From contig CAJINV010000002.1 of assembly GCA_905178155.1 (NCBI GenBank), forward strand, positions 9,554,650 through 9,618,649: DNA of 64,000 bases. The letters are read 5' to 3'. Below are positions 16,623 through 57,085 of the stretch, one piece after another (the stretch's first letter is position 1; the number at the start of each line of letters is the position of its first letter). The position numbers and the translations under genes are program-made. Under the pieces are notes generated by a model. That model saw only the letters and a program-made list of their open reading frames with translations, did no database searches and was not told where the DNA came from. Origin of the DNA: Amoebophrya sp. A120 (lineage: Eukaryota > Protista > Dinoflagellata).

Positions 16623-19600
16623 ATGCACCAGCCGCGCCGGTTGTTGTATGTTCTACTGCTGGTCGCGCAGCGAACGGCCTTCAGCAAGGCGGTCACGCAG
16701 TTCTCCTACTGTCCCTCGGTGGACAAGAACTCGCCCAATGGGCTCGCCTGCCAGCGGTGTTTGTACGACGAATTTTGCCCCCCGTCCGCGCCGACCTGCC
16801 ACCACATCCACAAGGTGTGCTACGATTCGACCGTGCCCTTCCAGTGCAACGTGAACGCGACGATCAGCGACATGTCGACTTCGGCGAGCTGCGAGGGAAT
16901 CTGCAACCCGACCTACCCGCCCTTCTTCTGCCCCAACGCCTGTTTGAACGAGGATTTCCCCTGCAAGTGGGTCCCCAACTGCAACCCGAACAGCGAGACG
17001 CACATGGCCTGCCTGCAGGGCTGCGAGGATATCCCAAAGGGCAAAAAGCTAGCGCATCGTATTTCATCTAAGCTGTAAAAATGAATCAAAATCGGTCATG
17101 GGCGACCCCACAGCATCCAGGTAATATTGGAGAAAATTTTGGCGTGTGCAGCTTCTTGATCTACAAATGCGCTAGCATTTTGTTTCGGGATAGGGGACCA
17201 CAGCTCGATCCTGCCGTCGCGCCTTTCTCTGTGCAGCAACTGCGCGCAGTGCAAGGCGGTGTACACCTGCAACCACCCGGACGTGCGTAACTACTGCCCG
17301 GTCACCTGCAAGACGCAGGAGTGCAGCGCGCGGTGCGGCCGCGACGAGCAGGGCGGCAAGGAGCACGGGATGGCGGTCAAGCAATGCTATCCGCCTGTGT
17401 AAACGCTTTGGATTCCCGAGGAGACCCGATAAGTTCAAAGCATGTGAAGACTTCCGTCCTACGAGGCGAGAAGTAGTTTCAACAGGTTTTGCAACACAAA
17501 ACTCGTAGGTCGCTCCGGCCAACGTGCTGTACTCTCCCTTAGATCTTGGATTTTACATAATTGCAGTAGTATTTTTGCGAAGCCACGCATGACAATAAAT
17601 GGGGGCCTGAAATGAAAGTAGACCACTCATCTCTCATGCTGATCAGAGAGAACTTGACGGTAAAATGTAGAGGCTTCCAACATGGTGAGGTGCATAAAAA
17701 ATGTTTCTTCCACAGTATTAAAGCGTGGAGGACCGAGTCCAGTATTTTTGCTTTTCCGGTTACTGCTCAGCTTCGGGTGGTCTTCTGGGGAACAATCGAT
17801 CGTTTTTGCACACCATAGCTGCTGGGAGTTTATCATCAACGACGGAAAAAGCTGCAACGAGATGATCAAGCGTGGGTACGACTGCCACTGCTCTTGCGGC
17901 GACCACTACGCCATGCACCGGCCCTACGCCTTCCCGGCGTCAACGAGCCGGAGTCTACCCAAGCCGGCGTTTTTCGTGGGCCGCGACCACGGCGGGGTGG
18001 ACCTCGGGCTGAACGTGACCATGACCGCGGGGCAGTACTTCCGGATCCAGGTGTCCGGCGTGGGGCTCGCGTCCGCCACGGGCGGGCAGACGGCGAAGAT
18101 CCGGATTCTGCAGTACCAAACCGCGAACATGGGGTGCGCCGAACCGCCCGCGCCGCACATGATGGGCATGGATGACACGAAGACGCCCTTCGCCGCCTCC
18201 ACCTTCTACAACGCGTGGGACAATGTGAAGATCGACGGCTGCGTATCATTTGGAAAAACGTCCCCACCCCAGAGTTGTCATGCTAATCTGCATGCTGAAA
18301 ATATTTCTCATGCGGAGCCCCATGAGGGGCATTCTCTAGTCGCGTTTCGGAATTCAGCATGATGCGCTAGATCTGTGATGCTGCTAAACTAGCTAAGCAG
18401 GACTACACTACGAGGCCAAACTTGTCATGCATAACTCCCAAGCCTTGGAGATTTGTGTTGCAAATTTCCCAATTTGACTATGGGGTGGAGACGTTTTTAC
18501 CCATGATACTGCGGCTCCTTCAAGGTCTGCCACTGCAACGGCGGGTGCCTGGTGCAGTCCGACTGGAACCACGTGGGCACGCTGAACATCGTCAGCCCGG
18601 CCGCCACGGTGCTCCCGGCGAGCGGCTTCGTGCGGCCGCTGCCGAACTGCCCCTCCGTCGTGGACCACTACATGCCCTACCTCCCGCGCAACACGCCAGA
18701 CATCGACGAGCGGGCTATGAACGCGGAGGAGGATACGGAGAAAGTGTCGCAGTTGCGCGTCGTGTTCCTGTTGCGCAACTGGCAGCAGTCGCTGTTCGAC
18801 TCCACCTGGGAGCGCACGCTGAAAAAGGTGCTGGCGCTGGAGCTACGGTCCTTCAACCCGCTTCTGAACGAGTGGATTCCGAACGAGGCGGAAAACGATA
18901 TCGTCATCACGACCAGCGGCACCAGAAGTCCCTTCTGGAGCGGGCGGCAGTTGGGGGAAGTAGGACCGGAAGAGAAGATTGAGACCATCGAGATCGCCGC
19001 GCCGGTCATTTTCGATCGCAGTGAATTGATGACACAACAAGAAGCGGAAGAACAAAGAGGAGGAAAAAATAGCAGAAGTACACCTAGAGAAGAAAGCAAA
19101 AACAGTAACGCGGCCCTCGCAGTAGACCCGCTCGCGAATGCCGGACTTCTGTACCACGACCCGAAGCGGCACATTGCGCGCCAGCGCGCGCTGAAAGAAG
19201 CCGAAGAGGCTTCGCTTCTTGCACAGAACAGCCGCAATTCCGCTGGAGAAAACAGCAGAATAGGCACTTGGTTCACCCCCTGGCGGCGGTTTCTCACGCG
19301 GCTATTCGCGGGAAGCCCAGCCTCCTACGAAGCTAACAAAAGAAAGTTCTTGAGGAAAACCAAACCGGAAGAAATAACAAATAACGGGAAGACTGCTTCT
19401 ACCACAGATAGTAATAGTCACGACATGGTGCAGCCGTCGGGCAGCAACACAGCGATAGAGGAAGCCAGCGCTGTCCATAAACAGCAGTCACCTGGCCATA
19501 GAGATAACAAAAATCCAACAGCAGGAACACCCGGTGCGGAGAACATCAAGCGGAAACTGACGATTATCGCCTGCGAGGACGACGACACCGCATTTCACAG

Positions 19601-22600
19601 CATTATGGGGGATCCCCTGACCAGCTGCCACTTCGCCGCCACGATGTTCGGCCTCGCCGCCGTGTGCACCGGCAAGGGCACCGACCTGGAGCGCGCGCGC
19701 GCCGCGGGGTGCCAGGGAACCTGCATATTGAGAGGAAAAACCCCCCCTCCCCATATCAAAACGAAGTTTCTGATGCTGGATTTGCGTACTCAAATCAGAT
19801 CTGTCTTGCTGGCGAGGACTGCGGGCTCCTGCCAAGCCTGAGTAGAGAGCTTTTGGCCTAGGCGCTTAGCATGAGAAACGTCTATGTTGTAGGCCCAACA
19901 GCATGACAAACCGCCTGCATAGTGCGGCAGAGCCTGCGGAGTTGTCTTCTTGCAATACAGACGTGATTTGCGACCTCAAATAAGCAACACAAATATTCGG
20001 AAACATGCCTTTTCGATATGGGGAGGGGGAATTTTCCTCACAATACTGCATCGACTACATTTGCAACGTGAACGTGAACAACGCCAACGCCGGCGGCACG
20101 ACCAGTACCACCGTGACCACGCAGAACGTGAACACGTTTCTGCCGGCCGGGGAGTACCTCTACGGCTACGTGAAGATCCGCACCGAGAAGTCCAAGGAGC
20201 AGTTGAAGCAGAAAGCCGACCTGATGCGGCAGGACCGGGTCAAACTGCAGGCCACCGCCTACCACTTCGCGAAGGAATCGCTGGTGACCAACTGGCCCGA
20301 TCACATGTGGGTCGAGATTACGGAGGAGCCGACCGTCACTAACCAACCGCCCGCGAGTACGGAGGCGGAGGACGAGGAGTTTACCAGCAGTGGGCTGTTT
20401 GTCGCCCTGCTTTGCGTGTTGGCGGTCGGGCTGGTGGTGGGGGGTGCGATGTGCTTCTGCAAACGCCAAGCGCAGTTTCAAGACCGGGAGGAGGAAGATC
20501 CCATGATTGCTAAGGCGAAAAAGATCGCACTGTATAAATGACTGGGTCATAATTTTTGATGCTTTCATCATTTTGTTTTCTGTATCTCTGTTCGTGCGCA
20601 CTAACTTTGACGATCACCTAGCAACTGCCTGCATTCGTGAAGTAGATAATCACGTAGCAACAGGTGTTGAGATAATGGATTAAGTGCCCCAAAACTTCAT
20701 ATTTCCAACTCCAGGGTGCTCCTGTTTCCGCTCGCCGGCCTGGGCTTCGTTGCGGTGAAAGGGTTCGAGAAGGTGAAGGCGTACTGCAAGGGGCCGCCCG
20801 AGTCCGAGGACGAGCAGGACTTGTGGGAGCCCCCCGAGGGGTTTCAGGCGTACGCCGGGGCGGAAGTGGTGCTGAAAAACCTGACGAAACTGGAGTACAA
20901 CGGCCTGAAGGGAAAATTGATGAAATACGTCGAGGACAAGGAAAGATGGCTCGTCGACGTGGTCGTGTTCCAAAGCACGGTGGAGGAGGAGCACAAGGAG
21001 CTGTCGCTGAAACCGGAAAACTTCCGCGTTCTGAAACCCCAGCACGGGCGGCAGAACCTCGCGCGCGCCAAGGGCCGGTGGAAGGGCGGCCTCGGCATAC
21101 TCGGCGTGGGCGGGACAAAAACGGCGCCAGCGCAGGACGAGGGCCTCTTCGAGGAACTCAACCTACCGGATTCACCAGAAAAAGTACAGGTTTTTTTTTG
21201 CATAACTGCTGATGACGCGAGAGACCGAGGCTTTTTATTGGGGCTGTGGATGTCTAGAGGGACAGATTGTCGTCCTGGAGCATATTTTTATCACCACATC
21301 GTTCATCCAGCAGTTCTACTTGAAGAATTGTTGCCTCGTTCAGATTGAATCAGAAAAAACGGGGCTGTAAAAATGTTGGGTTTTAAGTTTAAGAATTAAT
21401 TAATTCGTCCCCGGCTTGTGTGTGTCGGGGCCGGCGTCTCCATGTGGTGTCGGAGCGGATTCGGAGAGGCGCGGCGCAGATGTGGATTCTCGGCGACAGG
21501 CGACGGCGGCGGGACGGAAAATGTTTGATATACATGGCCGGGGAGTTTAATTTTCATGGCCACAGGGGAGGACGGCGCGGGCAATTTTGGGCCACACATG
21601 AGGGCAGTGGCCGCTCACTTTATCCAATACACACACGGACCAGGGCATTATTTACCTGGACACAGGTTATCGGGGAGTTAATTAATTTTCTTAGAAACTT
21701 AGTTTCTAAGTTAATTAATTAATTCGGGGGTCCTCTGTGTTCAGCTTCAGGACGAGCACTGGCAGCTTCGGCGCCCATTTTTAGCGCGCCCGGCACAGTG
21801 ACGCGGCGCGTTTTCGTGTGGCCGAGCCGCGCCCAAAAGCCAACGCGTACGGCTGCGAGTTTTGCGCGCGCGCGCAGATTTTTGTGTGCGTGAGCACGGG
21901 CGCAGAAGTTTACGTCTTTCGCGCGCGTGCGCGCACCCACCTGCGGTCTTTATCTTCATGCCCTGTGCGCGCACACAGTAATGCACGCGCGGAGACATCC
22001 TCATGTCCTGTGCGCGCACGCAATCGCGCGCGCGCGCACGCACGCAGCCTCGTGCCCTGTGCGCGCGCGCAATCTCATTCGTGCGCGCGCGCATGCAGAC
22101 ATCCACATGCCCCGCGCGCGCGCAGCCGTCAACGTGTCCTGTGCACAAAGCGCGCGCGCGCAACCATCCTCATGCCCCCCGGGCGCGCAGACATCTTCCT
22201 GTCCCGCGCGCGCTCGCTGGCGGTGGGCTCGCGCGCGCGCAGACGCGCAAGAGGTTGGGGCCGCACACGCAGGGCGAATAGCCCGCGCGCACACATAGGA
22301 GGTCGAGCCTGTGTGCGCGCGCGCTGAGAAGGCGGGCTGGCGCGCGCTCGCAGGATGCCTCTGGGCTGCCGTGGGCGAATGTGCACGGCAGGAATAGAAC
22401 GAGGTGGCCGCATCGGCCCAATGCAATGCAAATCACGGCGGCGCGTGGCATTTTTGGAATTACTTTGTAAAGGGCGGGCCTTTGTAGCTTTCACGCACAA
22501 ACGTGCTTTTCACTTTACTGCGCGCAGGTCAATCGCCCGCGCGCCCGCGCGGGCGTAGTGGCCACAAGCTGGGTATGCAAACAACGCCAAGAGGCTAGAC

Positions 22601-23333
22601 TGGCTTTTCACACACACAGTCCCGGAATTAATTAATTAACTTAGAATCTAAGTTTCTAAGTTAATTAATTAATTCCCGGAGTGTGTGTATGAGGAAAAAA
22701 CTAACTCCGTTCATCATGTCTGTCAGCAAATAATTGCACGACGGATCTTGTGTGGGTGTCTGTCTCTGAGTCACCTGTGTGTCTGTATCGTGCCACCCCT
22801 TGTTTTATCGAAAATTAATTCGTCAGTGCGAAAACATGTGTGGCAAAAAAAATAAATGCGCAGGCATCCTGTATGACGAAGTTTTCAATACTAATAATCA
22901 AATATCAAAAAGCTTACCAGGTCTTGGGACTTTCGCCGGCCCCGACACACACAAGCCGGGGACGAATTAATTAATTCTTAAACTTAAAACCCAATATTTT
23001 TACAGTATCGAAAAAACGAAATAAATCTGATTTCAGGTGGACCACGCGGATATGACAGCGAAGACGATAGATATCACCAAGCAGCGGGTTTTCAAGCCGT
23101 CCCAGCCGGCCGGCCGATTGCCAATTCGGCCGCGGGAGCCCGAAACGAGCAACCAGGTGGTCGCCGTGGAGAAAAAATCCATGTTCAGCAGCTTTGGCGG
23201 GATGTTTGGCGGGGGAGGCGCTAGCAAAACAAGTGCGACGTCGAACCAGGCTGCCATCGCCGGGAACAGCAACAACAATCGCCAGCTCGTGCAGGCACAG
23301 TACGGTGTGAAAAGCTACCGGCGCCCCAAGTGA
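16623..23333 (+). CDS. Multi-exon Cys-rich membrane protein: signal peptide, ShK-like Cys modules, TM helix, cytoplasmic SH3/KOW-like barrel. Approximate exons 16623-17029, 17198-17387, 17823-18243, 18514-19725, 20051-20531, 20715-21189, 23037-23333
   Basis: Splicing restores frame at each junction (CE-DH, KQC-WEF, DGC-GSF, GTC-IDY, IAL-VLL, VQ-VDH); CED..C..C..CPVTC motif; TM GLFVALLCVLAVGLVVGGAMCFC; VVLKNL..YNGLKG..RWLV..LKPENF. Confidence 0.7.
17030..17197 (+). mobile_element. Introner-type non-canonical intron
   Basis: GAGGA|TATCCC..GCTAGCGCAT / ATGCGCTAGC..GGGATA GGGGA|; removal restores frame. Confidence 0.75.
17388..17822 (+). mobile_element. Introner-type non-canonical intron (degenerate)
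   Basis: AATGC|TAT...ATA GCTGC|; removal restores frame. Confidence 0.6.
18244..18513 (+). mobile_element. Introner-type non-canonical intron
   Basis: Perfect DR CTGCG; IR TATCAT..AAAAACGTCCCCACCCCA / TGGGGTGGAGACGTTTTT..ATGATA. Confidence 0.9.
19726..20050 (+). mobile_element. Introner-type non-canonical intron, same family as 37197-37526
   Basis: Perfect DR CTGCA; ~35-bp IR containing CCCCCTCCCCATATC / GATATGGGGAGGGGG. Confidence 0.92.
21361..23009. mobile_element. Non-autonomous long-TIR DNA transposon (Mutator/foldback-like) inside an intron
   Basis: 72-bp IR at 21365-21436 / 22934-23005 with one mismatch; flanking DR GAAAAAAC(G), 8-9 bp; no transposase ORF. Confidence 0.8.
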
Positions 23334-24088: not shown

Positions 24089-25580
24089 ATGGCGACGTCC
24101 GTGTACGGAAGTTTTGGGGCGTCAGAGCGTCCCGCAACCGGACCGGGCGTCAAAACCAATACCGGAACGCAGGTGCACACTATGGCACTGGAAAAAGACA
24201 TGGATGTAGCCGATTTGCGTTCGTAGTTGCAAAGGCAGTAATAATTCTACTTCTTTCCATCAAACATCAGACCAGAAATAGTCCGCGTTACGGCGGTTGA
24301 GTATGGCCGTATTCCATTGGTCTCCATTTACATGGTGCTCCAAAAAAAAAGTACTGACTGCTTATGCATGTTCTTACTGCGGCGCTTTAGCACTGAGGAA
24401 GTAAAACAAGCGAATCCAAAAGCTACCGCCAGTTGATGTTTTTTTAGCCTCGATACTGCTTGGAAACCACGTGCATCACAACATATCCACAGTGACAAGA
24501 AAGTGCGCCCAGGAGGTTGATTTTGAAACCATTGTGGCGCTGTCCAAGCAGTTTACCGAGGAGTTGGAGCTGAAACAGGCCGAGAAGCAAGCGCTGACCA
24601 AAATAATATCGGACGCAAAGAAAGCTATCCAAAGGAATCAGGCCGTAATAGTGAAGAAAAAGGCACAACTGGAAAAAAGCGAGACGCAGAAACAGGATTA
24701 CGACAAAAAATTCAAAGAGCTGGAGGCAGGGAATGCGAAGCTAAGGCACGAATTGCAGGGCCTGCTCCGGGAAAACGAAAAGCTAGGTAGACTTTGATAA
24801 AGTATTTGAGAACAACGAAGACGAAGGTGCGCATTATGAAAGAATAGAGGAATTGTTGTCGTGTAATAGTGCACGGCTTGAAATGATCCATATTCTCGCT
24901 AGAGTCGCAAAAATTTGTACCTGCGAAATCGTTGCTGTGCGTTTGACGAGAAAAATGAAACAAATCTATCAGCTGTAGAGGTGGAAACAATGTCAGAGCA
25001 GATGCGGGAACTCTTAGCAGTGTACGGGGAGCACCGGGAATATCCTGTGCAAAAGTATCGCACTCGTAGTAAAAATCGCGTTTATGCATTACAAATCTCT
25101 TTCTCAAGATAAATCAGCATTACCAATTCAATTTGTAATGCTGGGCAATTTGTCATGCAATTTATACTAGTACGATGCTTTTGCATTGCATAGGGAACAA
25201 CTGGAGGCAATACAGAACATGTCCAGCACCTATAGGCGGGAAATTGGAATAGAAAAGAAGCACCGCGATGAGGTAGGGCACTTAGTAGTTTGATGAAAAC
25301 CTGTTCTTGCCGACACGGATTCGTTTGACAATCTTTTTTCTTTACAGAACGGGAACGAAATGTTGCCCTTGCCCCTAAAAGCAAAGCCGCTCCTTGCTTC
25401 CTTTGAACAGGATTGCTGTACCACTCTCATCCATCACAGGTAATGGCGTCCGTGCGGACGCACAAGACCGCGAGAAGCATCATGAACGACCGCGTCGCAG
25501 ACGCCACGCGGAGGCAAAACCTGCTGAAAAGCCACGTTGCAGACATCTTTGTAGCCAGTGTAGTGGCGCCGGGTGGATAG
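24089..25580 (+). CDS. Multi-exon coiled-coil protein of unknown function (exons approx. 24089-24205, 24513-24786, ~24940-25040, ~25420-25580)
   Basis: Heptad E/K/Q/L-rich segment EVDFETIVALSKQFTEELELKQAEKQ..; first intron GT-AG in frame. Confidence 0.55.
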
Positions 25581-27513: not shown

Positions 27514-30500
27514 ATGGAAAATGAACCCGACACAAACGCGGTGTCCGCTACGGAGCCGCTGCAAAATGGCGAACAACAACAAAACAAGTCGAAGCACACG
27601 GTGCAGCCCTGTACCGGGCACCAGCTGCCGAAGCAGGTGGTGGAAATCATGGTCCAGGTCCCTGCGGGCAACAGCGCGCACAACCATTTCCGCACGCCGA
27701 CCCACGCGTCAGCGAGCAGCGGTACTTCTACCGCGTTGCAGCTCGGACTAGGTGGGGCATTCCACCACAAGCTCTCCACGGTGGACGAGAACGAGATGCT
27801 GCTGGACGGGGCGGACAGCGGCACCACCTCCTGGCTCGCGACCGGAGCGGGAGGGAACAAGAAGAGTAAAACCACCTCTCGGGGCGGGTCGAAACATGCG
27901 AAAAACGCCGGGTCCGCAGATCTGACGAATACAAACGACAACCAGTCCTCTGCGTCTTCGGACGATGTGGGAGACGCGCGGACCCGGTCGAAGCAGCAGG
28001 TGCACCTTTTGGAAACCCTCTCCAGCGCGAGTTCCGACCAGTCCGGGCACAAAATGCAGAATCTCTTCTCGGCGCAGCTTTCCCCCTCCGACGTCACCAG
28101 CACCACGAGCCAACAGCAGGAGGCATACCCGCTTTCCTTGAAGATGCTCGAGGCAACATCGCATTCGAACATCTTTTCAGCAAGTCACGCGACAAGCCTC
28201 CAGCAGAGCCTGGACTTGCAATTTGAAGTGAACGAAGACCGGGAGGGCGTCGTGAAGTTGTTCACGGAGTATCAAAGTGAAAAGCGCCTGCCCCCATGCC
28301 CGGGAGTTTCAGATGGTTTTGTTGCATCAGGTTTTGTTGATTTTCATCATCCTAACTGCGAGCTGCTTTGTCGATGCCATCTAGTAGAGAAGTAGTTTCT
28401 ACTTCGCCTATAAAAGATTTGTAGTAGAGAAATCTTGTTACGGCTTCAGAATCGATGGGCTTTCTGCACCAATAAAATTATGTTGCTAGCATGTTGGCGG
28501 TGACTAATGTGAAGCAGCTCTCCGATAAGTTCTCAGATATAAGGGCGTTTTTCACTTTGAGACGTAGTGGGGCGGCTTCACAGAGGGGTGCATCGCGGAC
28601 TGGAATCACGGTGAATACGAGACTGCAACCTTTGCCATTCGGCACATGAAGTCTGGCGAGATCCTCTGTGCCGCGGGTATGACGACGAAGGGCTTGGCGA
28701 ACGAACCAACCGAGGTCGGCGCAGCAGCAGGAGATGTAGATGGCCCAGCAACAATGCAAATAAACCCGAACCTCATTCTCGCGAAGCCCGGGGTGCGGTC
28801 GACGCGGGTAACTCGCTCACAGACCGTGCAACAGCAGCAAAGACGGGCAGCCGCGGCGCTGGGCAAGAAGGGGAAGGGAAAGCAAGGAAAACAGTTCTTT
28901 TCTCATAAGGGAAACAGCACGTCCTTTTTGCCGGATGATTTGCACCGGGCGTCCACCGATCCAAATTTCGTCTGGGAGGATGATGACGACGACGACGACG
29001 ATTTTTACTACGAGAATATCCCCGGAGAAGAGGAGGATCAGGCGGATCAGCAGCCAGAACAAGGCAACGAAGCGGGCGGGAGCATCAACCAGGACGCTGC
29101 AGCAGACATGGCGTCGGCGTCGGTGGCGTCCAGCAAAAATCAGAAAAACAAGAAAAAGAAGGGACCGGGCGCTTCGATGAAAACGGTGCAAATTATAGAA
29201 CCGTCGAGCAAACAGCAGGCAGCGAAGGCAACAACCGGCCGGCGGCGAAAAATCTCCCGTAAAACGGTCTTGACGCTTTTCGCTACCGCGAAGGCGTGGA
29301 GGAGAATGGGCATGGCGGAGCTGTATGGTTGGGGACACAGGGCTAAAGATGTTTCTGCTAGAATCTGGTGAGGAGCCTCAACACCGTCAAGCCTGTGGTT
29401 AGTTGTCATTGCGACGGGAAGATGAAGAAATTAGCGCTTGGGTTTATGATGTAAACTGCGCATGATCCACAACTTCGTCCCGAGGATCATATTGCAATTT
29501 GGTTAATGATGAAATCATGCTATTATACCAATTTGGGTACTTAGCTGTGTCCTCCACTACTCAGTTTTAGCTCAACATTTTTGCCACATGTGTTTCCCCA
29601 GTCGATACCCGCCTGGTTTGGTTTATCAAAAGGACTTACAGCGGCTACAAATCCAGCCCGAAGGTGCGCAAGATCATCATTCCCGCGACGCAACCCGCGC
29701 TGAAGTTCTGGAAAAAATGCGGCGCCACGGACTTGCAGTTCAAGGACACGGACGCGATCGCCCGCCTGAACTACCGCAGATGCACCCTAATGGAGCTCAA
29801 GACCGCGGGTTGGGAAAGCGGACTGCTGCGCGAGATGACTCTGTATTTGATTGACTCTTTCTTGGGGAATTTCTGTCCTTTTTGTGCGCATGCCGCAGTT
29901 CGGCTCTTGTGTCGTGTGTGATGTAGTAGTACAATTGCTGGTGCTCTAGTGCTGTTTCCTTTAGATTTGCAATAATCGACCAAAGTTAAAGTAGAGTGCA
30001 GTTGCACTAACAACCTTTGATATGTTGCGCTTTTTAAGAACATGTTGACTTGGTCGTGAAAAAGTTTAGATTTTTCATTGGAGAAACCTTGCTAGATGTA
30101 GCGCTTTGCCCTGTCTCGTGATGAATGTATGCTGGAGGAAAAATCACTACTATAGGCCCATGATCGCTTTGCGCGCCGAGTTTTCCCGACTGGTGAACTA
30201 CGTGAAATTTGGGGAGAGCGCCGAGGACCTGACCACCATCCTGACGGAGTCGTCCGGTAACGCGATCAGCAACCGCTGCCCGGACGACGGGCAAACGCTG
30301 CTGTTCGACGCAGTGCAGAAGAAGGACCCGCAGCTTGCCTTCGAGTTCACGCGGACCTTGGTGGAGGCCGGCAATTTGTGGGCCGAGGTGAACGCGCACG
30401 TCGAGCCGGGCGAGCTCCAGCAAAATAAGCCGATCGGTGTTTTTTTGCCCAAGCAAGGAGGAACGCTGGACCACGAGGAAATCGTGGCTCCTGCCGCCGC

Positions 30501-39000: not shown

Positions 39001-39146
39001 AACGCAAGCCCGTTCGGGCAAGTAGTGGGCCCGAGCAGAGAGGAAAGGGCAAGAAAGGGCAGCGGAAGAGTACCGGTGCAACGGTAGAACAAGCTGATCA
39101 CGAGAAGCTGGAAGTGACGGAGCCGCTTTTGAACGACAGGGTTTAG
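36015..39146 (+). CDS. ABCG (White-type) half transporter; exons 36015-37196 and 37527-39146
   Basis: Walker A GPSGSGKTT, signature LSGGQKKR, Walker B LFLDEPTSGLD, TIHQP, C-terminal multi-pass TMD. Confidence 0.93.
37197..37526 (+). mobile_element. Introner-type intron, same family as 19726-20050
   Basis: Perfect DR ACGTG; IR CCCCCCTCCCCATAT / ATATGGGGAGGGGGG; yields HHV-ESL. Confidence 0.92.
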
Positions 39147-42144: not shown

Positions 42145-44101
42145 ATGACGGTCGTCGCAGCGGCTTCGTCCGACGGCGGTGCAGCAAACGGGGCCGCCAG
42201 TGCGTCGTCGAAGTCTGTTCCTCTTCCTGCAAACGTCGCGTCCGACAAAATTACGCACGCCGATGTGCTGCGACTAGTTTCGCTGCTCGAAAAGAAGGAC
42301 TTCGAAACCTGGAAGCAACTGACGGTCGAAAAGCACCTGTCGGACGAGTTCACCAGTCTGTCCGAGCAGCTTGAGCGGCTGGCGAAGCAGATGCTGCCGC
42401 TAAAGCAGCTGTGCGGGGAGCTGCGGACGCAGACGAAGCACGTCAGCGAGCGGACCGAGGTGCTGCGAGCGGAGGAGGTCGCGAAGCGGCGGGACATGGA
42501 GGAATACCTGGAAAAGCACATTGACCCACTGCAGCGGGAGGAGTATCATATTGAAAAGTGCAGCTGCCTCGTCAGATTCGGAAGAAATAATGCGAAGTGC
42601 TTGTATTGGAAAGTTATTTTATCCACATGGACAATGAAAGGACGAGGACTCTTGCTACTTGTTGGAAATTTCAGTGACACACAGCAGTACAAATTGCGTG
42701 ACGAAGCAATACTGTGTACTATGCAAGACGGGAAAAGTAAGTGTAGAAAAAGTTTGCAAGACAATGGCTTGCTCATTCGGAGGTAAGCGCGCTTTTCATT
42801 CTGATAAGTAGAACGAGAAATTCGAAAAGGAGATGCGGGAGTCGGACGAGCTGCAGGCCCGGCTCCGAACCTTTCTGGAAGAGTATGACCACCGCGAGGA
42901 ACTGAAGCGGCAGCAAAACGAGCTGCGGGAAAAGGAATTCGGGAATACGCAGCGGAAACGTGTAGTCATTAGTTCGGGTCGTCGTGCTGTCAGGGCCGAC
43001 AGGCAAAGACTTGACGTGCTGCGTCCGAGGGCTGGAAATGTTCAATTTGCCAGGACGCGCTGATGCCAAGAAGAGCTCAATTTTTTTTTGCCCTGCTGTA
43101 GTGTCATGGGTACAAAAAAGGCCTTCGAAGCCGTTTGGACAATACATTTTTGCCACTCGCGCCGTCAGTGAACATTTTGTGCGCAAGCAAGACGAGATTC
43201 AACATCTAGGCATGTTTTTCCCTGACAGACAGACAGACAGACTCAGGTCTTTTTGAAAATCATAGGCGAGTTGGATGAACAAATTCTGGAGCTGGAGAAG
43301 ACCACAGATCAAGAAGCGGCGGAACTGTGGCAGTGGGAAAAGCTATCGGCGCAAATTGTGTTGTGCACTGACTCGAGATGCAGTTCTTGGTCACATAATG
43401 TGTCTTTTTCCAATGCTTGCAGTGTGGAATCTTGTTGATACGTAAATGTATCGAACATTTACATTGTGTGTGCGATGTTCCTCTTTTTGAAGGTGTATTC
43501 TGTTGCGACGTCCGTTTGTTGATCACAAGCTTTGGCTTGTTGAGTCAAAAGAGCGCAACTTTTGCGTCGATAGGGGCAGAACCTGGTGAAGCAGAAGGAG
43601 AACGACAAGATTCGAGCGTCCATAAACGCACGAGTGGAGCAATTTGAGGAGTGGCAAAAGTCGCTGGAGCAGATGCACAAAGACTTCAATACTACGGGCA
43701 CGGACTTGCAGACACTTCGTATCAAATGTAAAAATGTCTGGGTCTGGAGGAATGCAACTTGTCATGCTAAATCTGCAGCGTGCAAAAATCTGTGTTGCAT
43801 GATTACCAAAAGTCGACCAATTTTGATCAAGTCGGGAGGTAGTTTCTCATGCAGGATAGGCATTAGAAAGGTCTCGCAGAATCTGTCATGCTGGGTCCGG
43901 CATTCCAGACCTCATGGGTCATGGAAAAGCAGCATGACAAATCGCGCATTCATCCAGACCCAGACATTTTTACACTTGATACTTCGGCTGAAGAAGCAAC
44001 TTTTGCTCAAAAAGAAGGACGAGGCGGCCTACCGCCTGAGTCACACCAAGGAACTCCTCAAAAGGAAAAAAGTCATCGAAAAAGAACTTGCGAATGTATG
44101 A
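42145..44101 (+). CDS. Taxilin-like coiled-coil protein, about 5 exons
   Basis: LKQLCGELRTQ..EEVAKRR and LQARLRTFLEEYDHRE resemble taxilin motifs; three junctions restored by the introner rule, one unresolved. Confidence 0.6.
42544..42811 (+). mobile_element. Introner-type intron, ends related to 28270-28567
   Basis: AGGAG|TATCATATTGAAAAGTGC / GCGCTTTTCATTCTGATA AGTAG|. Confidence 0.85.
43344..43577 (+). mobile_element. Introner-type intron
   Basis: TATCGGCGCAAA / TTTGCGTCGATA plus 5 nt; yields EK-QNL. Confidence 0.75.
43720..43986 (+). mobile_element. Introner-type intron (young)
   Basis: Perfect DR CTTCG; 29-bp IR with one mismatch, TATCAAATGTAAAAATGTCTGGGTCTGGA. Confidence 0.93.
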
Positions 44102-45045: not shown

Positions 45046-46466
45046 ATGGCGAAAAGTAAGAAGGGAAAAGCGACTTCCGCCGCGGCGACGGTCCTCACGG
45101 ACGAGGAGCGCCGACGGCGCGAGGAGCAGCGCCAGGTGCAGCAACTGGTGTTGCGGCTGAAGAAGGAGAACGCGAGCGAGGAGGAGATCAAGCGCCAGAA
45201 GAACCGGCTGAAGACGGATTTGAAGTACTCCACGCAAGAGAAGCGCGACTACTGGCGGGAACAGAAGAAGAAGAACGCGGAGACCAAAAGAAATGTCGGC
45301 GCAGGTTGTGACCCTTCCTCGTCCAGCAGTGGTCCTCCTGCCACCGGAGAAGCAGCAGGAACGGGCCTAGGACCGCAAGAGGAACGAGTTGGCGAAAGTG
45401 AGGCGTGCAGCGTCGACGTTGCTGGTGGTGGTGGTACAACAAGCTCAGGGATCCTCGTCGGACCAAATTCGAACAAGCGGAGGAGAGGCGAGGAGACGGA
45501 TAGGGTACAAACCGCAAAGGCTGGGACCACCACCGCGCAAGACGACGAGGACCTGTCGGATTCGGCCGAAGAGGCGGACGAGAACCTGCAGAAACAGCAC
45601 GAGGTGATCATCATCCCGATCGTGTGGCGGGGCCGGCACGATCGGCACTTGCTGATGGAGGCCGCGGAAAACGTGAAGCGGGTCTTGGCGCAACAGGGTA
45701 TCAACACCTGGATCGATTCGAGGCGCCAGCACACGCCCGGCCAAAAGTTCGCGTTCTGGGAGCACAAGGGCGTCAAGTTCCGGATCGAGATCGGGCCCAA
45801 GGACTTCGAGCGCGGAAAGCTGTGTCTCTGTAAACACCCAGTCATCCCCGGGGACTTTCAAAACACAAAGAAAATGTACCGAATAAGGCCAGTTTTGATT
45901 ATTAATCTTGCGTCGCTTTTTCTTCCCGCGATAATTGACAGTGAGTTAATGCGTAAAAATGCACCATTCGAATTCCAAATCTCATCGTCTGATAAAGTTC
46001 CATTGATTTCGAAACTTCTGTCCCCACGGCTCAATAACACGACGCGATTATTAAAAAAAACAACAACAACAGCTTCGTCCCGCTGCCACCAGAGGGCGCA
46101 CGCGAGCTGCTCGTGCAGCTGCAGAAGTTTGGGTTCGAAAAGCTGCAGGGCACGATTCGCGACGCCGACGAACAAGGCGAGAACCACGAAGCGGGTGGTG
46201 AGGAGGTGCCCCGGGATTACAGCACCCTCTACGACCGGTCGAAGGAGATCGGGGGCACGGTGGCCGACTACACCCACCGCTTCTCGTCCACGCATGAGGT
46301 AACGAAGTTCGGCGGCGGCGGCATCCTCAAGCCCGGCGTGGGGGACAGGAGCGGCGCCAGTGGGGACGCACTCACGGAAAACTTCCAGCTCACGACAAAG
46401 CAAGCTGCAGAGGAGGACGACAACCGCGCGACACAACCAAAAAAGAAGAAAAGGAAAGTGCGATGA
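45046..46466 (+). CDS. Stand-alone ProRS-type (HGTP) anticodon-binding domain protein; GT-AG intron 45876-46072
   Basis: VIIIPI..IDSR..TPGQKFAFWEHKGVKFRIEIGPKD; no catalytic domain; basic N- and C-termini. Confidence 0.8.
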
Positions 46467-48248: not shown

Positions 48249-50516
48249 ATGAGGTCGCGGCGGCGCAAGGCCGGCCTCGCTTCGGTTCCGAAGCCACGTG
48301 TCTCTCCACCTGGTCGCCGAAGTTTCTACCACGCGGTCGCGGTTCACTATGTGTCGTTGGCCGTTGGCTTTTTCGTGTCGTGTGTGACCGGTGTCTTGGT
48401 CGTTCCCTCCAAGGAAGACAATGCTGGTGTGAACCAAATCGCGACACCGGTGGTCATTCCGAGCGTCGCGACGCCAGCGGAAGTGGCGAGCGAGGATGTT
48501 GAGGGTGGGAAAAAGAAGGGACCCGGCGACAGTGCGGTTGGCGAAGACCGAAGCGTCAGAGGTGTTGAAGGTGCACCAGAGGCACCACCTGCTGATGTAA
48601 CCACGCCAACAACCGCCGCGAGTACGCGCAGCGGTGGGGTGGAACAAATTGACCGCCTGGGTGAGGCCACATCCGCAGATGCAAGGAACAAGGAGGCGCT
48701 CGGATCCACTTCTTCAACGCGAGCAGGTGGTGGTCCGCTGCAGCAAATTTCCGGGAGCGGAACAGCCGGGGGTGCTTCGTACAGCACTGGAGCGTCGCAC
48801 GGGCAGAACGTGAACAGCAACAAACCCCGGCCAGCCATCGCAGAGTTCAAGTCAACGCTGCCGCTGCCGCCGCACATCGCCTTCAAGTATCCGCCGCGGA
48901 TCGAGGACGTGTTGGATGAAGAGGTGAATTCCTTTGCCGGAGCCGCGTCCAAATTTCAGGACGGGGACATTTTGAGCAGCGCAGCCCCCGGTGCTGCTTC
49001 CTCGGCGGGCAGCGCGCCCGGCGGGGCCTTGTCCGGTGCCAGGTCGTTGCAGAATGCGTACCCGACCGCCCAGGAGTTGGCCGACATCCAGAATCCCCAC
49101 CTCTTTCGCGACGCGACAGGCTCGGCTTCCTCCCCGGGCGGAAGCGGTGCGGCTCGTACGGAAACCGTGCTGTCCACCCCCGTGCAGCCCGCCAAGCTCG
49201 GGCCGGCAACGGAGCGCAGAATTTTGGAGCAAGCGATCGCGCGGAACGGGGTGCTCTTTGAGCCGCGGGACCAGGTGGCGCCGAAGGTGCCGCAGAGCGC
49301 GGTGTTCGAGCGGAGCCTCGTGAAGATCCCGGACCAAATCGGCAGCGCGCGGGCCGGTGCGGCCGCACTGGGCTCGCCCGCGGAGGTGGCCGGAAATTTC
49401 GCGCGCGAGTGGGCGCAGAAGGCCGACCTGCAGGATTTACCGACGCTGTCCATCGCGCCCGCGGACCAGTATCCGCTCCTGGACGCGGCGGACCCGCAAC
49501 TGGCCGCGGCGAAAGCCGCCCAGGACGAGCGGGTGTGGGGCGAGCAGGCAGACCGGAGTGCCGACGCTACGGGCGAAGACCTGCAGGACGACAGCACCAC
49601 ACCGGGCGAGGAGGGCAGCACGACCACATCCGCGGCAACAGGCGGTCCGCCCACCGGACCCGGCGCCGCTGTGCCGTCCGCCACGGTGTGGGATACGCAG
49701 AAGTTGGGAAAGTGGGTGGACAACTTTGCGGAGCGGGCGGTGGCGCTGACCACGAAGGCCATCACGCCGAAAATAACGCAGAACGTAGAGCAGGTCGTAC
49801 GGGCCGAGCTGGTATGAAAGCGAAAATTGCGTGGTGCTCTTTTGCTTGCAAGTACTGAGTATTGATACATAGCTGAGATAACTGTCACCTGAGTAAAAAT
49901 TTCGCAACAAAATATGCTGCGAATTTGCTCCGCGAATGTGCTGGTCCATCCAGCATCAGCATTTCATCCCGGAACAAGCGCAATATCAATGTGCACGGGC
50001 GAGATGAAATAAAGTAGAAAGTTAGTACCTACGACCGCGTGCCGCCTCGGCATAGCTTCCCATCCATGCGCAAGAAAAGATGCATGTTGCCGCCGCCGAG
50101 GACGCACGATCTCCAATTTTTAGCTCTCATAGCTGGCGAAGGCGTTTCCGCCGCCCGCCGTAGCACCGGTTCCCACGCCGGGCAGTGGCCAGGGTTCCTC
50201 GTCCGGCTCCTTTGGGTCTAGCGGTAGCGCGGCAGCCAATGCCAACATGTCCGTGGCTAGTGCGTTTTCTGGCTCCGGAAGCCGCGGGACCGGGTCGTAC
50301 CCCGTAATATCGGGTAGCAGCACCGGAAGGCTTCCGATCAAAGAGGAGGGCACTGAAATTCAGCCGAGCACCCCAGCGGTTCCGGGAAGCAAAGGTAGTG
50401 TCGTCATTAACGACGCCCCGACGGTTGTGGTGCAACGGGTTGTGCAGTCGACGCCCCCGGAAAACAAAATCGACATATTGGCGTACAAAGACCTCTATCC
50501 GGTGGGTAGCAAGTAG
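48249..50516 (+). CDS. Low-complexity Ala/Ser/Gly/Pro-rich protein with an N-terminal hydrophobic anchor; intron ~49813-50136; 3' end uncertain
   Basis: Long ORF, TM-like AVAVHYVSLAVGFFVSCVTGVLVV, in-frame second exon. Confidence 0.65.
49813..50136 (+). mobile_element. Introner-type intron that is also readable as GT-AG (49812-50132)
   Basis: Perfect DR GCTGG; IR TATGAAAGC..AAAATTG / CAATTTT..GCTCTCATA. Confidence 0.88.
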
Positions 50517-51284: not shown

Positions 51285-53220
51285 ATGGCATCAGCAGGGA
51301 AGGCGGGTTCGGCAGCCCGCGACAAAGAGATTCGGGAGGTCTTCGATATCACGGAAAGGCTAGCATACCATCTATCATCCTGATGTAGTATGCGAAAATA
51401 AACAGCACGGCAAATAAGCACTCTTCTGATCATGCGCACGCCCGTAGCGCGCCGCTGCGGGAATGCAGCACAAGAAAGTTCTTTTGCAATACTGTGAATC
51501 TTTTCATGATTCCGAAATATGGTATGCTAGGACTTTTCTCCAGGATGTGCGACCTGTTTGACAAGGATAAGAAAAATGTGGTGAAAATAGAAGAGCTATC
51601 GGATTGATGCGAAGGTTTTGCTGTCCCGGAAGAGATGAATTCGTGCTAGGCCAAGTCTCGCTTCCGAAGCATGCATCGTGTTGTTTGTTTCAGAAGTACA
51701 ACGCTGCAACTCCAAAAAACTGTATTTCCGATTTCGTAGCACTTTTTTTCACGCAACGTTGGCCACTTAAGAACGGCGCACTTTGACAAACCGGACCAAG
51801 TGACGAGCGCATTCTTTTCAATTTCATGCAAGACGAGTACAGCAATAAGCAAATGTTAAAAAATGTAGTCTGTCAATTTGTTGAATTCGTATTTGAATTT
51901 GGGAAGTAAAAGTATCGTTTGCAAGTTGCGCACGTTTCTCAGCTCTCCGCCCGGGGCAGTTTTTACCTGAAGAAAAACTCGGACTCATCTTGCGGTTATC
52001 CGCTACAAATGCAGTGTCTGGGTCTGCGGGAGAGTTGTGATGCTATTTTGAGGAGCAATGGTAAAAAGCAGAGGTCATGGTCACTGCACAACAGAAGAGC
52101 CTGACAAACTTTCTCACAGCTGCGGAGTTGTGTTGCCTAGTCTAGTGCGAACGGAAAATCGCATTTCTGTAAACTAGAAGGAGCAAGTACAAGCCGCATC
52201 CGCGATAATATTCCGTTGCAACGGACCTGCATGGCTACGGAGTCTGCTGTCCTCGTTTTAGCCGCGCATAAAAACCAGTTCTGCAATCAGCCAGACGCAG
52301 ACATAATATTTCCATGGTATAGCGGTCATTGGGGTATCAACTTTCGGACGCCGAGATCGGGCAGCTCGAAGGCCAATTCTTCGAACCGAAAGCACCCCCG
52401 GGGTCGGCACGCACCTTTGACTTCGTAAAGTTGCTCGAGATCTTGAACAGCAGCGAGACCACCATCCTGCGCAATGCCACGATGCAGAAGCGGTCGGATG
52501 CGATTTACGAGGCCTTTCGGGTGTATGGGGGTGTCAGGTGCTGGGAGCGCGACAGAATGGAAACTGAAACAGCTTGTCTTGCAGAAAACCGATTATACCA
52601 GTCGGATCTTCAGGCCCGCAGCGGTGCATGATGTCAAAGTTTGCCTACGCGTTGAGTTAGCGGGTCGCGCCAGTTGCAGTGACCAAGATAGGCACTTGTT
52701 CTGTTCTGCTCTTCAAGAAACTTTTCAGCACGTGTAGGAGCCTTAGTAGCCTTACAGTCGGGGCCGCTTACCTGCTCTGCTGCGAAACAGGCACTCTCTG
52801 CATGGCACTTCATTTATCAGAAAATTATATATGTTTTGCCTATCTCCCACCTGGCACTCTCACAGAGGCTTCGACGTCCGAGACACCGGCGAAGTGGATA
52901 CGAAAACAGGCGACTCCCCTGCCCCCTCTTTTGCATTAAACTGTTTACACGACTCGAAACATCAACGGCAAAAAAACATCTTCTGGATGCTAAGTAGAAT
53001 CCCGGCCTGAAGGACCGTCTCAGCCGTCGGAGCTTGTGGTGCAAGCACTGGTAGTACGAGGCAAGAAATTTGTAGCGAGTACTTGGCATAATTTCGCATG
53101 AGAAATGAGAGGAAGGGGCAGTTGGCTATGACCATACAGGACCTCGCGGAGTTGAAACACGTGCTGAGTACCATAGGAGAAAAGATGACTGAGGAGGAGC
53201 TGGAGGAAGTGTTTCAGAAC
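51285..53220 (+). CDS. Calmodulin/myosin-light-chain-like EF-hand protein split into small exons (51285-51346, 51553-~51596, ~52323-52523, 52870-52898, 53142-~53220; last exon unresolved)
   Basis: Spliced: KEIREVFDLFDKDKKNVVKIEEL..RSLGYQLSDAEI..IYEAFRVFDVRDTGEVDLAELKHVLSTIGEKMTEEELEEVF. Confidence 0.85.
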
Positions 53221-55669
53221 TACAGCGCGTCCGTATCCTCGTGAGAAAAAATTATCCCCCATCGTCCCAACAGAAACTCGTTTCTTGTTCATTTGATGCG
53301 GCCTGTGGGCCGCATCTAATCTCCTAGGAGTGATTGCAGGCAAAGCGAGACAAATAAAAATTCTCTGCATTTGCAATCCGGTATGACTATGCAACAGGAC
53401 CTGCATGCTCGAGAGCTTTTTTGGCGCTGCTCTAAGTACTCGGGACTTAGACAAAGATGACTTATTTCTGCGGGAGGGGAGATTTTTCTGCGTGATATTC
53501 GGAGCAGTTGAATTTTTCCGAATTTTTGAGGACTTCACTCCAGAACTGACGGCCGGCTCGCTTGGAGGATATCGTTCGCATTACTGCAGGTGCCAGCACG
53601 GCAGACAATAGGCTTGAATACCACGCAGCTCTTTATTTAGGAGCCCACCTGCAACATCAATACCTGAGACCGCACGAACTGACTTTAGGTGTTGGCTCGT
53701 GATGTCCCTCAAGCTCGCTCAAACCCAGCGACAGATGTTTTACCAGAGCAGCCTGATGTTCTCGTTTCTTCGTAGAGGAACTGAGCAGTTTACATCAGTA
53801 AAAAAAGTTGACGATCGTAGCGCACCTTTCTTTGTGGTACGAACATAAGAGGAATATACTGAACGCGTTCCCGCCCCGTTCGAAAGTCGTCTTCGGAAGG
53901 TTTACTGTGTCGTGCCTGTGTAGTTGATAGAATGGCGAGAGGACTGCTCGAAGTCGTGACAGTCATCGTTCGAGTTGAGTTTATCGTCCTGCTCCTCGGA
54001 ATCGCTGAGAAGCAGAAGAGTGTGTTTTCGGAACATCGCGCTGCGTCAATCGGATTGAGTATGTAGGTATTTGGAAGCAATGTCTGTCTTGTTTCCATAG
54101 CGCGTCATGATATATCTTCGTCATCCTCGTGGCGTGCGAAGCCTTAACTTCAATCCACCATTGAACTGCAGCAGAAAAGGAAAAAATTTAGTAAAACGCG
54201 GCCGCCGTCGGCTTTTATTGTGGTGGTCGGTCGTAGGACTTCCAGTGTTTTTCTTATACTTATTTATCACTTTCTGTCACTTTTTTGAAGGCCTCTCAGT
54301 AGACTTCAGCTGGAAGAACAACAAGGTCCATGTCGATAAGTAGTAGTGCCAGGTAGCCGAACTCGCCGACCCTCGCAGTTGAATCGCGACACGTCTCGGT
54401 GCACGATGCCGGCCATATCGTGCTGAAAAGACCCTCCGACATAGGAACTTCGACCTGTTTGTGAAATGAATTTATGAAAACTGTGTCAGTACGTACGTCG
54501 TTCATTAATGTTGTGTATCGAAGGGATTGTGATATCCTCGATTCTATGAGCTTTCTTCCGTGCGTTCATGTGTCGGGAAGTGGTGGTCTTTTCGCTCTGA
54601 TACAGTGGATACTTCGCAGGGATGCTAACGGACCTCCTGGACTTTCCCGTGTTTTATCAGATTCAACTGCGCCTTCGTATTGTCTTGTACGTGCAACTAC
54701 ATGAAGCCTAGCGCTTCTGGTTGGCCCCCAGTATTTTTTTGCAGGAAAGAATAGGAGAAAGGGTGGCTAGCTGTCGCACTGGACATGATTGGTAATTAGT
54801 GCTCGTCAGTAGCAGGAGCACCATCAATTTCATTGTGTGCAGAAAGCCAGAAATTCTTGCTTTGTTTCCAGCAGATAGAGGCTGCACGAACTCAAACTGT
54901 GTGGTCCTTCGTGCCACGGTGGTCCATTTCAGGGTGTTTTTGTTTTAGGTTCGCAGCGGGCGCATGTGTGTCTGTGGGAACGAGGAGGGCGACGATTTGT
55001 TGCCGACCCCAGCAAATCAATGAAGCAGGGTATTTTTACAGTCGAGACTCCGACTGAGGATGGCTCGGCTTCAATTTTCAATTTGTACTACAACTCCTAT
55101 GCCGTGTTGCAAGAATCGTTAAAGTCATGTGTCACTTTCTTGTTACAACGGGCAAAAACGTGATATTCCTACATTGTCATTGTATTGCAAGACAAGGCTG
55201 TATGAAGGTGTGTTTGCACTTGATACGGGGCAATCAACCTCCCGGAGCACAGGGCCAGCTCGAGGTATCGCATTGGAAAAAGAATCCTCCTGGATTAAGT
55301 CGCGCTGTTGTGCGTGGTCCTACCGTGCAATCGCGCGAGATAAAGAGAGGCTGGCATTTTATTACTTACACAACAATATTTATGAGATACAAAAGGTCTG
55401 CGAACAAGGATCTGTTTGGTGCAAGACGTATTCCCAGGCACGCATTCTCTTCGTCCGCATCTTTAGATATAGTGAACTAGGTTCGCTTCAAAAGCGCACG
55501 ACAGCAGGGTGGCAGTGATTCAGTCTAGATGTTTTTTCCATCCACACCGTGATTTTCCGCCATACAAGAGACGAGCGAAACAGCATGTGGTTACGCCGGA
55601 ATTCGAAGGACGCAGCAGCGCGGCAGTTTTCTCGCAACGAGCGCAACGGGCGGCGACGTTTCGGTAGCA

Positions 55670-57085
55670 ATGACCGGTAGTGCACGCGCGGGCGGAGCGC
55701 AGAGGAAAAGGAGGGCCGGAGGGTCGACGACCTCTTTCGCGGCGTACAATGCGGACAAGTTTATTCCGCTGACACGCTTTCGTCAACAGCACCGGCGGAC
55801 GGAATACGGCAGGGGCAAAAAACTCTCTCACACTGTGTCTGCATGTTGGGAACGAAAAATAAAGGTGTGGTAGGAATTTGTATTTTTTAGCATGCCATAT
55901 GATGATGATGGTTTTCGCCAGAGGAACGAAAATTCCCCGTCCGGCTCAATGAATATGTCACTGCAATGAATTCTTGGCACCTTCACTACCGTGGTGTAGC
56001 CATAAGTACTTCTGCGCCTTTTCTCAATGGGTGGAAAGAACGTCTCCAAGTACTGAAACTCAGAACGAGACTGGGAAAGCGTTTTTTCCTTTCGATACAG
56101 AAGACGGGCGGCTGTGTGCGGCTGCTTTCATCCAAGACCAGCAACCCTTCACGAACTGCACCGACATTGCCGCCCCCACGCCTTTAGGCCCGGAAAAAAG
56201 GTCACGCGGTCGTGCACAATAGTTGAAGAGTAAGCTTGCATGTTGCACACAACCTTGAAGATGCTGCCAGCATATTTTGGTTATGCAAAAACGTACTTAA
56301 ATTAACACAGCACAAGAACAGTTCATGTGGCATGAGTACACATTTCCACCCTTGGTTTCCTCTCGGTGAGAAGAGAACTTTGGTGCACCTGTCATGTTTG
56401 TTGGTCGCAATCGTGCTGCTAGGAATTCAATTGATTCGAATTCTCACGACTGCGTGGCTTTGGCAAGTCATAATCCTCCGCCGAAAACGTCGTGGGTCGC
56501 GAATGGTGCTACGTCGAGGCTTATCCAAGTGTAAAGTGTCCCCTTCAGTTTGGAACAAAAAAGAAGACTTCTTTTTCTTTTCATGCAAAGTTGGATCGGG
56601 TTGAATACAGGAAAGCAGATATTAGAGCTTTCTTCGGGCACTAGAGATGCATCACAACTAGAGGCAATGTCGCGCAGACGCAGCCAACGCAGAAGTCTGA
56701 ATTCCTCTGAGCGGGGCTCTTTCCATGATGATGTCGCTCAGCTACTCAACAAGCCAGTGAACGGTAAGTACATGAATAATGGACTTGATATTATTTGAAG
56801 ATGAAGAAAGTACATACAAAAAGCTAGAGCTGCGTCACCAAAACGGTAATTGCGGTAGCTTACATGAATTGAAAATTCAACGTAAATTTAAGTTTTCTTT
56901 AGGAGAATTTAGATTATCATCCCATGCAAGAACAGGTGAACCGGCACCAAATTGGGGCTATTGCCAACCTGTTCCGGATTACGACGAGCTCCGGCACGAC
57001 CTGGACAATGATAATCTGTCCGGTGTGGACCTTCCGGAAGGCGTGGAGCTTTCGGACGCCGAAATTGACAAAGCCGCGGAGATAT
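55670..57085 (+). CDS. Exons encoding an apicomplexan CCp5/FNPA-type fibronectin type II-like domain; probably part of a larger multi-exon gene (~54.2-60 kb)
   Basis: Spliced FRQQHRRTE-DGRLCAAAFIQDQQPFTNCTD..GREWCYVE..NWGYCQPVPDYDELR; family recalled from memory, not searched. Confidence 0.65.

Follow-up and report, generated by a model that had tools for sequence, protein, structure and literature searches.

RNA of Amoebophrya sp. A120 lacks inverted-repeat introns from one base before to four bases after their terminal stem

The introner elements of Amoebophrya sp. A120 have been described as repeated families with inverted repeats (IRs) of TAT, seven nucleotides and a run of A, bounded by short direct repeats and found in genes that also hold GT-AG introns; more than 60% of A120 introns are reported to be non-canonical, and the text of that study leaves the intron borders and the splicing route open (Farhat 2021, PMC7789003). 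Introners with terminal inverted repeats (TIRs) and target-site duplications (TSDs) are also described in algae and core dinoflagellates, where splicing takes out the element together with as many bases as one duplication holds (Gozashti et al, 2022, PMC9860276). Here, we analyze 64,000 nucleotides of A120 contig CAJINV010000002.1 (positions 9,554,650–9,618,649, forward strand; assembly GCA_905178155.1), referred to as the window, and show that RNA lacks IR introns from 1 base before their 5′ arm to 4 bases after their 3′ arm (the −1/+4 register). The IR introns are the published introner elements, a link already drawn in an initial annotation of the window made from the sequence alone. The elements are therefore known; new relative to the texts we searched is the corrected, RNA-supported cutting rule. 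Neither this rule nor a branch site for Amoebophrya was found stated in that literature, which did not cover the figures of Farhat 2021 or Roy et al (2023, Curr Biol).

All RNA joints rest on assembled contigs. The contig sets X1–X4 come from one sample of one study, and their RNA nature was presumed from their listing and then judged by their behavior: five GT-AG introns are skipped in them, and intergenic bins have no coverage. X5 behaves like DNA, with even coverage of 37–57 kb outside repeats and a contig that crosses 43957–57000 free of gaps. For positions 16001–34500 joints were taken from X1–X4 (12 joint rows, the full list), and for 37001–57000 from X1, X2 and X8 compared with X5, with 15 of 62 joint rows listed, four of these 15 being repeat-derived. 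The raw RNA run X8 contributed 19 placed reads, all on one repeat. Regarding the origin of the DNA, exon 45046–45870 is 100% identical to protein P0121, labeled Amoebophrya sp. A120, and the ABC transporter query returned only a 74% A120 paralog as match.

Among the rows listed, RNA contigs skip 19 IR introns (Table 1), which comprise ten of the 15 proposed in the initial annotation and nine further ones, two of the nine being deduced from a single joint that contains a micro-exon. For the ten proposed introns the lengths skipped are exactly those predicted. All 15 proposed intervals are present in the sequence, 13 starting with TAT and two with TAC; in 12 of them the arm that precedes the final 5 nt closes with ATA, AGA, ATG and ACA being seen once each, and the 5-nt repeat is perfect in the five copies that had been named as young and matches at 1–4 of 5 positions in the other ten. 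The introns proposed at 37197, 42544, 43344 and 43720 have no RNA joint among the rows listed for 37001–57000, and that at 28270 has none in the X1–X4 contigs, which barely cover its region.

Where exactly are these elements cut? A slide range for the joint was computed for 18 verified introns, and the nineteenth (51596–51977) was fitted by hand. The length removed exceeds the stem by 5 nt in 18/18 joints, as had been claimed. A 5′ cut one base before TAT is compatible with all 18, a cut at TAT (0/+5) with 13 and a cut two bases before it with ten. Five joints, whose elements have TAT at 24181, 29324, 52524, 54416 and 54655, do not slide; they lie in four genes, derive from mutually dissimilar elements and all give −1/+4; with six offsets possible, five unique joints would agree by chance with a probability of ~8e-4. 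The records flag these five as ‘between: not known’ and list no extra letters, the record coordinates of joint 24179>24460 are contiguous (215, then 216), and the 29322 joint is supported by one contig (X2).

The unambiguous joints thus bear out a geometry that is fixed relative to the terminal stem, while moving it by one base: the initially annotated pair of cuts, one at the base of the stem and one 5 nt past it, is ruled out by 5/5. Only two of the 15 introns proposed have such a joint, and both shift one base to the left (29323–29611 and 52523–52868), as do the three further unambiguous introns (24180–24459, 54415–54606 and 54654–55229). The mRNA retains 4 nt of the left repeat copy and 1 nt of the right copy, so that a fresh insertion is silent in the message, and the element is removed with one target-site copy and without GT-AG, as had been anticipated. 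Transcripts that use neighboring GT-, GC- or GA-AG (or AT-AC) ends were looked for; across the slide range such a reading is impossible for 17 of the 18 introns, and that at 52899 can be read as GA-AG. The initial annotation also argued that removal restores conserved protein motifs. The six-intron gene spliced at −1/+4 does give a clean 163-residue EF-hand protein, but the original protein check was blind to a one-base shift because Val at 52523 and Leu at 29323 result from either register.

The elements are miniature, non-autonomous TIR DNA transposons with TAT…ATA ends and a 5-bp target duplication. Their IRs of 8–20 nt consist of TAT, seven variable nucleotides and a run of A (arm table of 21 window and 140 locus elements), and a pattern made from the 43720 element matches 148 stretches of a single related assembly (145 loci, 610 kb). 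A scan in which neither repeats nor G·U pairs earned credit, and in which coding signal set the orientation, retained 140 elements out of 768 raw calls; the 5-nt repeat is perfect in 104 of them and matches at 4/5 or more positions in 128. When repeats did earn credit, in a second scan, 193 of 398 elements were oriented and retained. In 60 kb of related loci the element scan made 34 calls, against 2 and 0 in two shuffles; the window element score was trained on the same introns and was not used as a chance test. A motif-free stem scan (220 pairs) was too noisy and was discarded. In five families, some copies run with the host gene and others against it (29:24, 8:7 with two ties, 8:7, 9:7 and 4:9); therefore no internal sense-strand signal is needed, and the ends alone define the intron, with the qualification that stem-base sequence is probably recognized too. 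Insertion is polymorphic between strains: locus L046, the ortholog of 52084–56979 at 95.6% identity, has at 1–86 the start of a 43720-family element where the window site 56974–56978 is empty, the 3′ end of that element lying beyond the contig.

With regard to a cognate autonomous transposase element, the related loci contain only three long TIR pairs (972, 972 and 4208 nt). Two of the TAT…ATA pairs with 5-nt repeats, L061 6001–6972 (972 nt) and L071 6001–10208 (4208 nt), may be nested copies, chance pairings or longer-element candidates. A second type of inverted-repeat element, with TGTCAG…TGACA ends, is seen at L043 1429–1722 and L067 63–355. The second family pattern had no match in viral contigs.

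The initial annotation proposed that geometry alone sets the splice sites, and in this respect the sequence at the stem base points elsewhere. In the −1/+4 register, any base occurs at +1 of the 18 verified introns (A7 G6 T3 C2) and any pair at the 3′ end, whereas T+2, A+3 and A−7 are present in 18 each; their partners A−5, T−6 and T+4 are present in 17, 16 and 15, and the changes at these partner positions mostly break the pair. In related loci, deviations at the kept positions compared with the partners number 9 versus 20 (p = 0.061), 5 versus 14 (p = 0.064) and 6 versus 17 (p = 0.035) under three filters. Since U+2, A+3 and A−7 are kept though the repeat has decayed to 18/50 matches, the stem-base sequence is likely read as well. 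The base at −2 of verified IR introns is G in 12/18 and A in 0/18, with A in 43/144 young locus elements; this small, post hoc observation could mean that AG ends are avoided.

The seven canonical introns (five by RNA, one by protein, one predicted) all start with GTA and have A at −7 in 6/7 (background 40%, p = 0.019). They show no conservation past +3, their 3′ ends are A-rich (40%) and not pyrimidine-rich, and they have no terminal stem (−3 to −9 kcal/mol, like cross pairs). In Table S4 of Farhat 2021 (PMC7789003) the second position is T in all 18 predominant intron types, nine of them the main types of A120 and nine those of A25, and the latter start with TT where the IR starts with TTA. 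These sequences would fit an N-U-A register shared by both, with a different offset from the stem in A25.

Are the arms paired in RNA? Strand-neutral decay yields G·T and A·C equally; selection acting on the transcript shifts the balance toward G·U. At positions 4–26 of the ten verified old introns (repeat at most 3/5), G·U outnumbers A·C by 27 to 7 (p = 0.0008); in nine of the ten, stability is higher for the sense than for the antisense duplex (p = 0.004). Six predicted old introns give 13 versus 3 (p = 0.02), the 144 young locus elements 128 versus 120, and element interiors have little skew (G-C 0.04, T-A 0.01). For six of the ten old introns, no more than 1 of 34 non-cognate pairings reaches the stability of the cognate one. 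Taken together, the decay patterns lend moderate support to selection for pairing of the arms in RNA.

What removes the elements? We favor an altered spliceosome guided by the hairpin, to which we assign a probability of about 55%. The two arms would pair in the pre-mRNA and bring the ends together, replacing the recognition of the 5′ end by U1 and of the terminal AG; the 5′ end would be read as N-U-A, in the same register as the GTA of ordinary introns; and the A of ATA at −7 is the predicted branch nucleotide, from which the 3′ cut would be measured. U1 was not detected in A120, and U2, U4, U5, U6 and 83/89 spliceosomal proteins are reported (Farhat 2021, PMC7789003). Precedents are a fixed branch-to-3′-site distance in Entamoeba invadens (−8) and the spliceosomal removal of non-GT-AG introns in Fritillaria (PMC13326754, PMC11282704).

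Several observations weigh against an altered spliceosome. For 13 of the 18 introns the register was chosen within the slide range to match the motif; exceptions among the RNA-less locus copies are G at −7 (three copies) and T at +3 (one copy). The stem would need to open for U6 and U2 to bind. The spliceosome normally pairs the first G and the terminal AG bases, and the 144 young locus elements have no preference for G+1 (48/144, mirror 40) or for a terminal AG (15/144, with ~15 expected by hand estimate). The canonical A−7 is weak when only RNA-verified introns are counted (4/5, p = 0.09), in ends that are A-rich, and a de novo search of loci for canonical introns gave no A−7 peak (15/45), with a finder that was right on 1/12 window calls; another finder placed 0/5 verified window introns exactly. 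Non-cognate arm pairs are also rich in G·U (174:88; own versus cross, p = 0.17; young cross pairs 734:819), so that part of the G·U excess is a G/U-rich shift of the arms, and locus sets with a repeat of at most 4 (36:35, n = 38) or at most 3 (19:16, n = 15), mostly young or mis-joined, have no G·U skew. Finally, the types in Table S4 may reflect aligner placement inside repeats.

The same indifference to first and last bases, together with families that work in both orientations, pairing that looks selected and canonical introns of the same genes that lack such stems, would suit a spliceosome-independent endonuclease and ligase that read the stem base (TAT/ATA) and cut 1 nt upstream and 4 nt downstream. 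Such a route has been proposed for euglenids, whose introns likewise have a stem that lies inward of each end and reportedly come out as circles, with no lariats being formed (PMC11282704). Two features of the window sit less easily with it: the N-U-A register coincides with the canonical GTA in 7/7, and changes at the stem base mostly break pairs yet spare U+2, A+3 and A−7. A candidate enzyme was not found, no search for one having been made. We hold this route as a tentative second option. Equally tentative is its wider form, in which a second, spliceosome-independent mRNA splicing system would erase every TAT…ATA element that has a 5-base duplication, whatever its orientation and target sequence, across tens of thousands of introns and with an origin independent of the euglenid system.

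Could the pattern have a less far-reaching cause? Hairpins and short repeats favor template switching by reverse transcriptase, and the contigs, which derive from one sample, are only presumed to be RNA, so that the joints might be switching or assembly artefacts. Yet five joints are repeat-free and share one offset, 11 of the 19 lengths skipped are not divisible by 3 while removal leaves the EF-hand protein clean, the same contigs skip the five GT-AG introns, and none of the 11 intron joints listed for 37001–57000, including five of the initially proposed introns, is present in the DNA run X5; we consider an artefact very improbable. Slimmer still is the chance that the elements are self-splicing ribozymes: these too would be removed precisely without GT-AG, but the families lie in both orientations, the interiors come from unrelated families of 157–576 nt, no catalytic core of group I or II introns was found in the window (no Rfam match), and the overall fold of intron 52523 with its flanks is no better than shuffles (z = 0.73). 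It is unlikely, though less remote, that the offset varies across the genome, with −1/+4 being a feature of the families that the window happens to contain, and different positions being cut in other A120 families or in non-canonical introns that lack a stem. The published text does describe the position of splice sites with respect to the hairpin as variable and gives repeat lengths of 3–5 nt (Farhat 2021, PMC7789003), and five unambiguous joints in four genes were observed here. However, junctions slide within repeats and would therefore mimic variability, the five joints stem from dissimilar elements, and the 5-nt repeat is perfect in 104 of the 140 locus elements found without repeat credit.

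Other features of the window may be mentioned briefly. The EF-hand (calmodulin-like) gene at 51285–53547 has 163 codons, six IR introns and an 18-nt micro-exon, with a weak Pfam EF-hand match on one exon (E = 0.006). A long terminal repeat (LTR) retrotransposon occupies 5939–14557 on the minus strand, with two 367-nt LTRs of 99.5% identity. It has an RVT_2 match (E = 1.6e-9), a frame of 2132 codons interrupted by one in-frame stop, and CCAAT as the probable 5-nt target duplication; on the minus strand its end seems to begin with TA instead of TG, and a partial related copy lies at ~4500–5750. The insert at 21376–22998, inside the 1853-nt GT-AG intron, consists of AT-rich palindromic inverted repeats around a GC-rich, GCGC-rich core. 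Coding tiles in 16500–64000 favor the plus strand by 257 to 4, like the co-oriented gene blocks described for Amoebophrya.

Table 1. IR introns and canonical introns of the window, with IR intron borders in the −1/+4 register; “new” marks introns that are not in the initial annotation.
Feature	Coordinates	Strand	Evidence
IR intron, AT..GG	17029..17196	+	RNA joint skips 168, slide −3..0
IR intron, CT..TG	17387..17821	+	RNA joint skips 435, slide −3..+1
IR intron, young, perfect CTGCG repeat	18243..18512	+	RNA joint skips 270; family copies in related loci
IR intron, young, perfect CTGCA repeat	19725..20049	+	RNA joint skips 325, 4/4 runs
IR intron, old, unambiguous −1/+4, CT..GC; new	24180..24459	+	Joint 24179>24460, both=0, 4/4 runs
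IR intron, young, perfect GGGAA repeat; new	25040..25196	+	RNA joint skips 157
Predicted IR intron (initially 28270–28567)	28269..28566	+	Stem, open joined frame
IR intron, old, unambiguous −1/+4, GT..CG	29323..29611	+	Joint 29322>29612, both=0, one X2 contig; skips 289
Predicted IR intron, young, highly repeated family, within ABC transporter gene	37196..37525	+	Stem, ACGTG repeat, paralog P0002 aligns on both sides
Predicted IR intron	42543..42810	+	RNA contig pieces end at 42541; stem, open frame
Predicted old IR intron, TAC start, weak stem; new	42945..43268	+	Open joined frame; no RNA row
Predicted IR intron, old	43343..43576	+	Stem, open frame; no RNA row among those listed
Predicted IR intron, young, highly repeated family	43719..43985	+	37-nt arms 95% complementary; family pattern in 148 stretches
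IR intron, young, perfect GCTGG repeat	49812..50135	+	RNA joint skips 324, absent in X5
IR intron 1 of EF-hand gene, arm ends ATG	51346..51551	+	RNA joint skips 206
IR intron 2 of EF-hand gene, decayed, arm ends AGA; new	51596..51977	+	From joint 51597>52322 with 12 letters between
18-nt micro-exon between two IR introns	51978..51995	+	12 joint letters map to 51980–51991; spliced frame open
IR intron 3 of EF-hand gene, perfect GCGGT repeat; new	51996..52325	+	RNA joint 51597>52322
IR intron, old, unambiguous −1/+4, GT..GG	52523..52868	+	Joint 52522>52869, both=0, X1 and X2; skips 346
IR intron, TAC start; also GA-AG at offset −2	52898..53140	+	RNA joint skips 243
IR intron, slide −1..0; new	53233..53501	+	RNA joint skips 269
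IR intron, repeat fully decayed (0/5), unambiguous −1/+4, AT..GT; new	54415..54606	+	Joint 54414>54607, both=0
IR intron, old, unambiguous −1/+4, TT..GG; new	54654..55229	+	Joint 54653>55230, both=0
IR intron, slide −1..0; new	55265..55550	+	RNA joint skips 286
IR intron, TAC start	55804..56101	+	RNA joint skips 298
IR intron, TAG start, slide −1..0; new	56184..56476	+	RNA joint skips 293; ortholog L046 differs at +1..+3 after ATA
Predicted IR intron	56521..56737	+	Stem, open frame; no RNA row
Predicted IR element	59205..59570	+	Strong stem
Predicted IR intron, TAC start	60736..61037	+	Stem, open frame
Predicted IR intron	63377..63859	+	Stem, open frame
Canonical GTA..CAG intron	20532..20714	+	RNA joint
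Canonical GTA..CAG intron with AT-rich inverted-repeat insert	21184..23036	+	RNA joint
Canonical GTA..CAG intron, C at −7	24787..24972	+	RNA joint
Canonical GTA..CAG intron	25273..25439	+	RNA joint
Canonical GTA..TAG intron	29843..30155	+	RNA joint, one contig
Canonical GTA..CAG intron	45876..46072	+	Sole junction tried that reproduces protein P0121
Predicted canonical GTA..CAG intron	56764..56935	+	Sequence only

If the fixed −1/+4 rule is true, it would provide exact borders for many introns, allow gene models to be fixed and explain how the elements spread through coding DNA at low cost in either orientation. It would also reduce the question of mechanism to a lariat branched at A−7 versus a full-length circle. 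Either outcome would be of interest: the lariat would reveal a spliceosome for which G+1 and AG are both dispensable, and the circle would make this the second example of mRNA splicing without a spliceosome on a genome-wide scale.

How does this system relate to others? The nonconventional introns of euglenids resemble it in their MITE-like origin, set-back terminal stem, stem-base motif and junction repeats, and their register, too, was solved from repeat-free introns (Milanowski et al, 2014, PMC3935182; PMC11282704). The motif is nevertheless a different one, CA/TG at +4,+5/−7,−6 with Y|R junctions in euglenids (PMC3935182), and TAT/ATA at +2..+4/−7..−5 with no junction preference in A120. 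Fritillaria borealis likewise has TIR/TSD introns without GT-AG that are removed by a changed spliceosome, but with preferred ends (AG-AC, AG-AT), a retained U1 and a duplicated U2AF (PMC13326754; PMC11282704), as opposed to A120, where no end bases are preferred and U1 is not detected. Introners in algae and core dinoflagellates bring along splice sites of their own or recruit those of the element or target (PMC9860276); the A120 elements need neither G+1 nor AG. Further comparisons are offered by PMC12130899, PMC11453091, PMC12005148, PMC12787238 and bioRxiv 10.1101/2022.06.08.495308. With respect to U2-type introns, the IR introns lack GT/GC…AG ends; U+2, a purine at +3 and a candidate branch A near the 3′ end occur in 18/18, but equally form the end motif of the transposon itself. 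Closest of all are the A120 introners as published (Farhat 2021, PMC7789003), to whose description, with its variable repeats and splice sites, the window adds a repeat of 5 nt, a fixed −1/+4 cut, the retention of N-U-A and A−7, and signs of selection for pairing at the RNA level.

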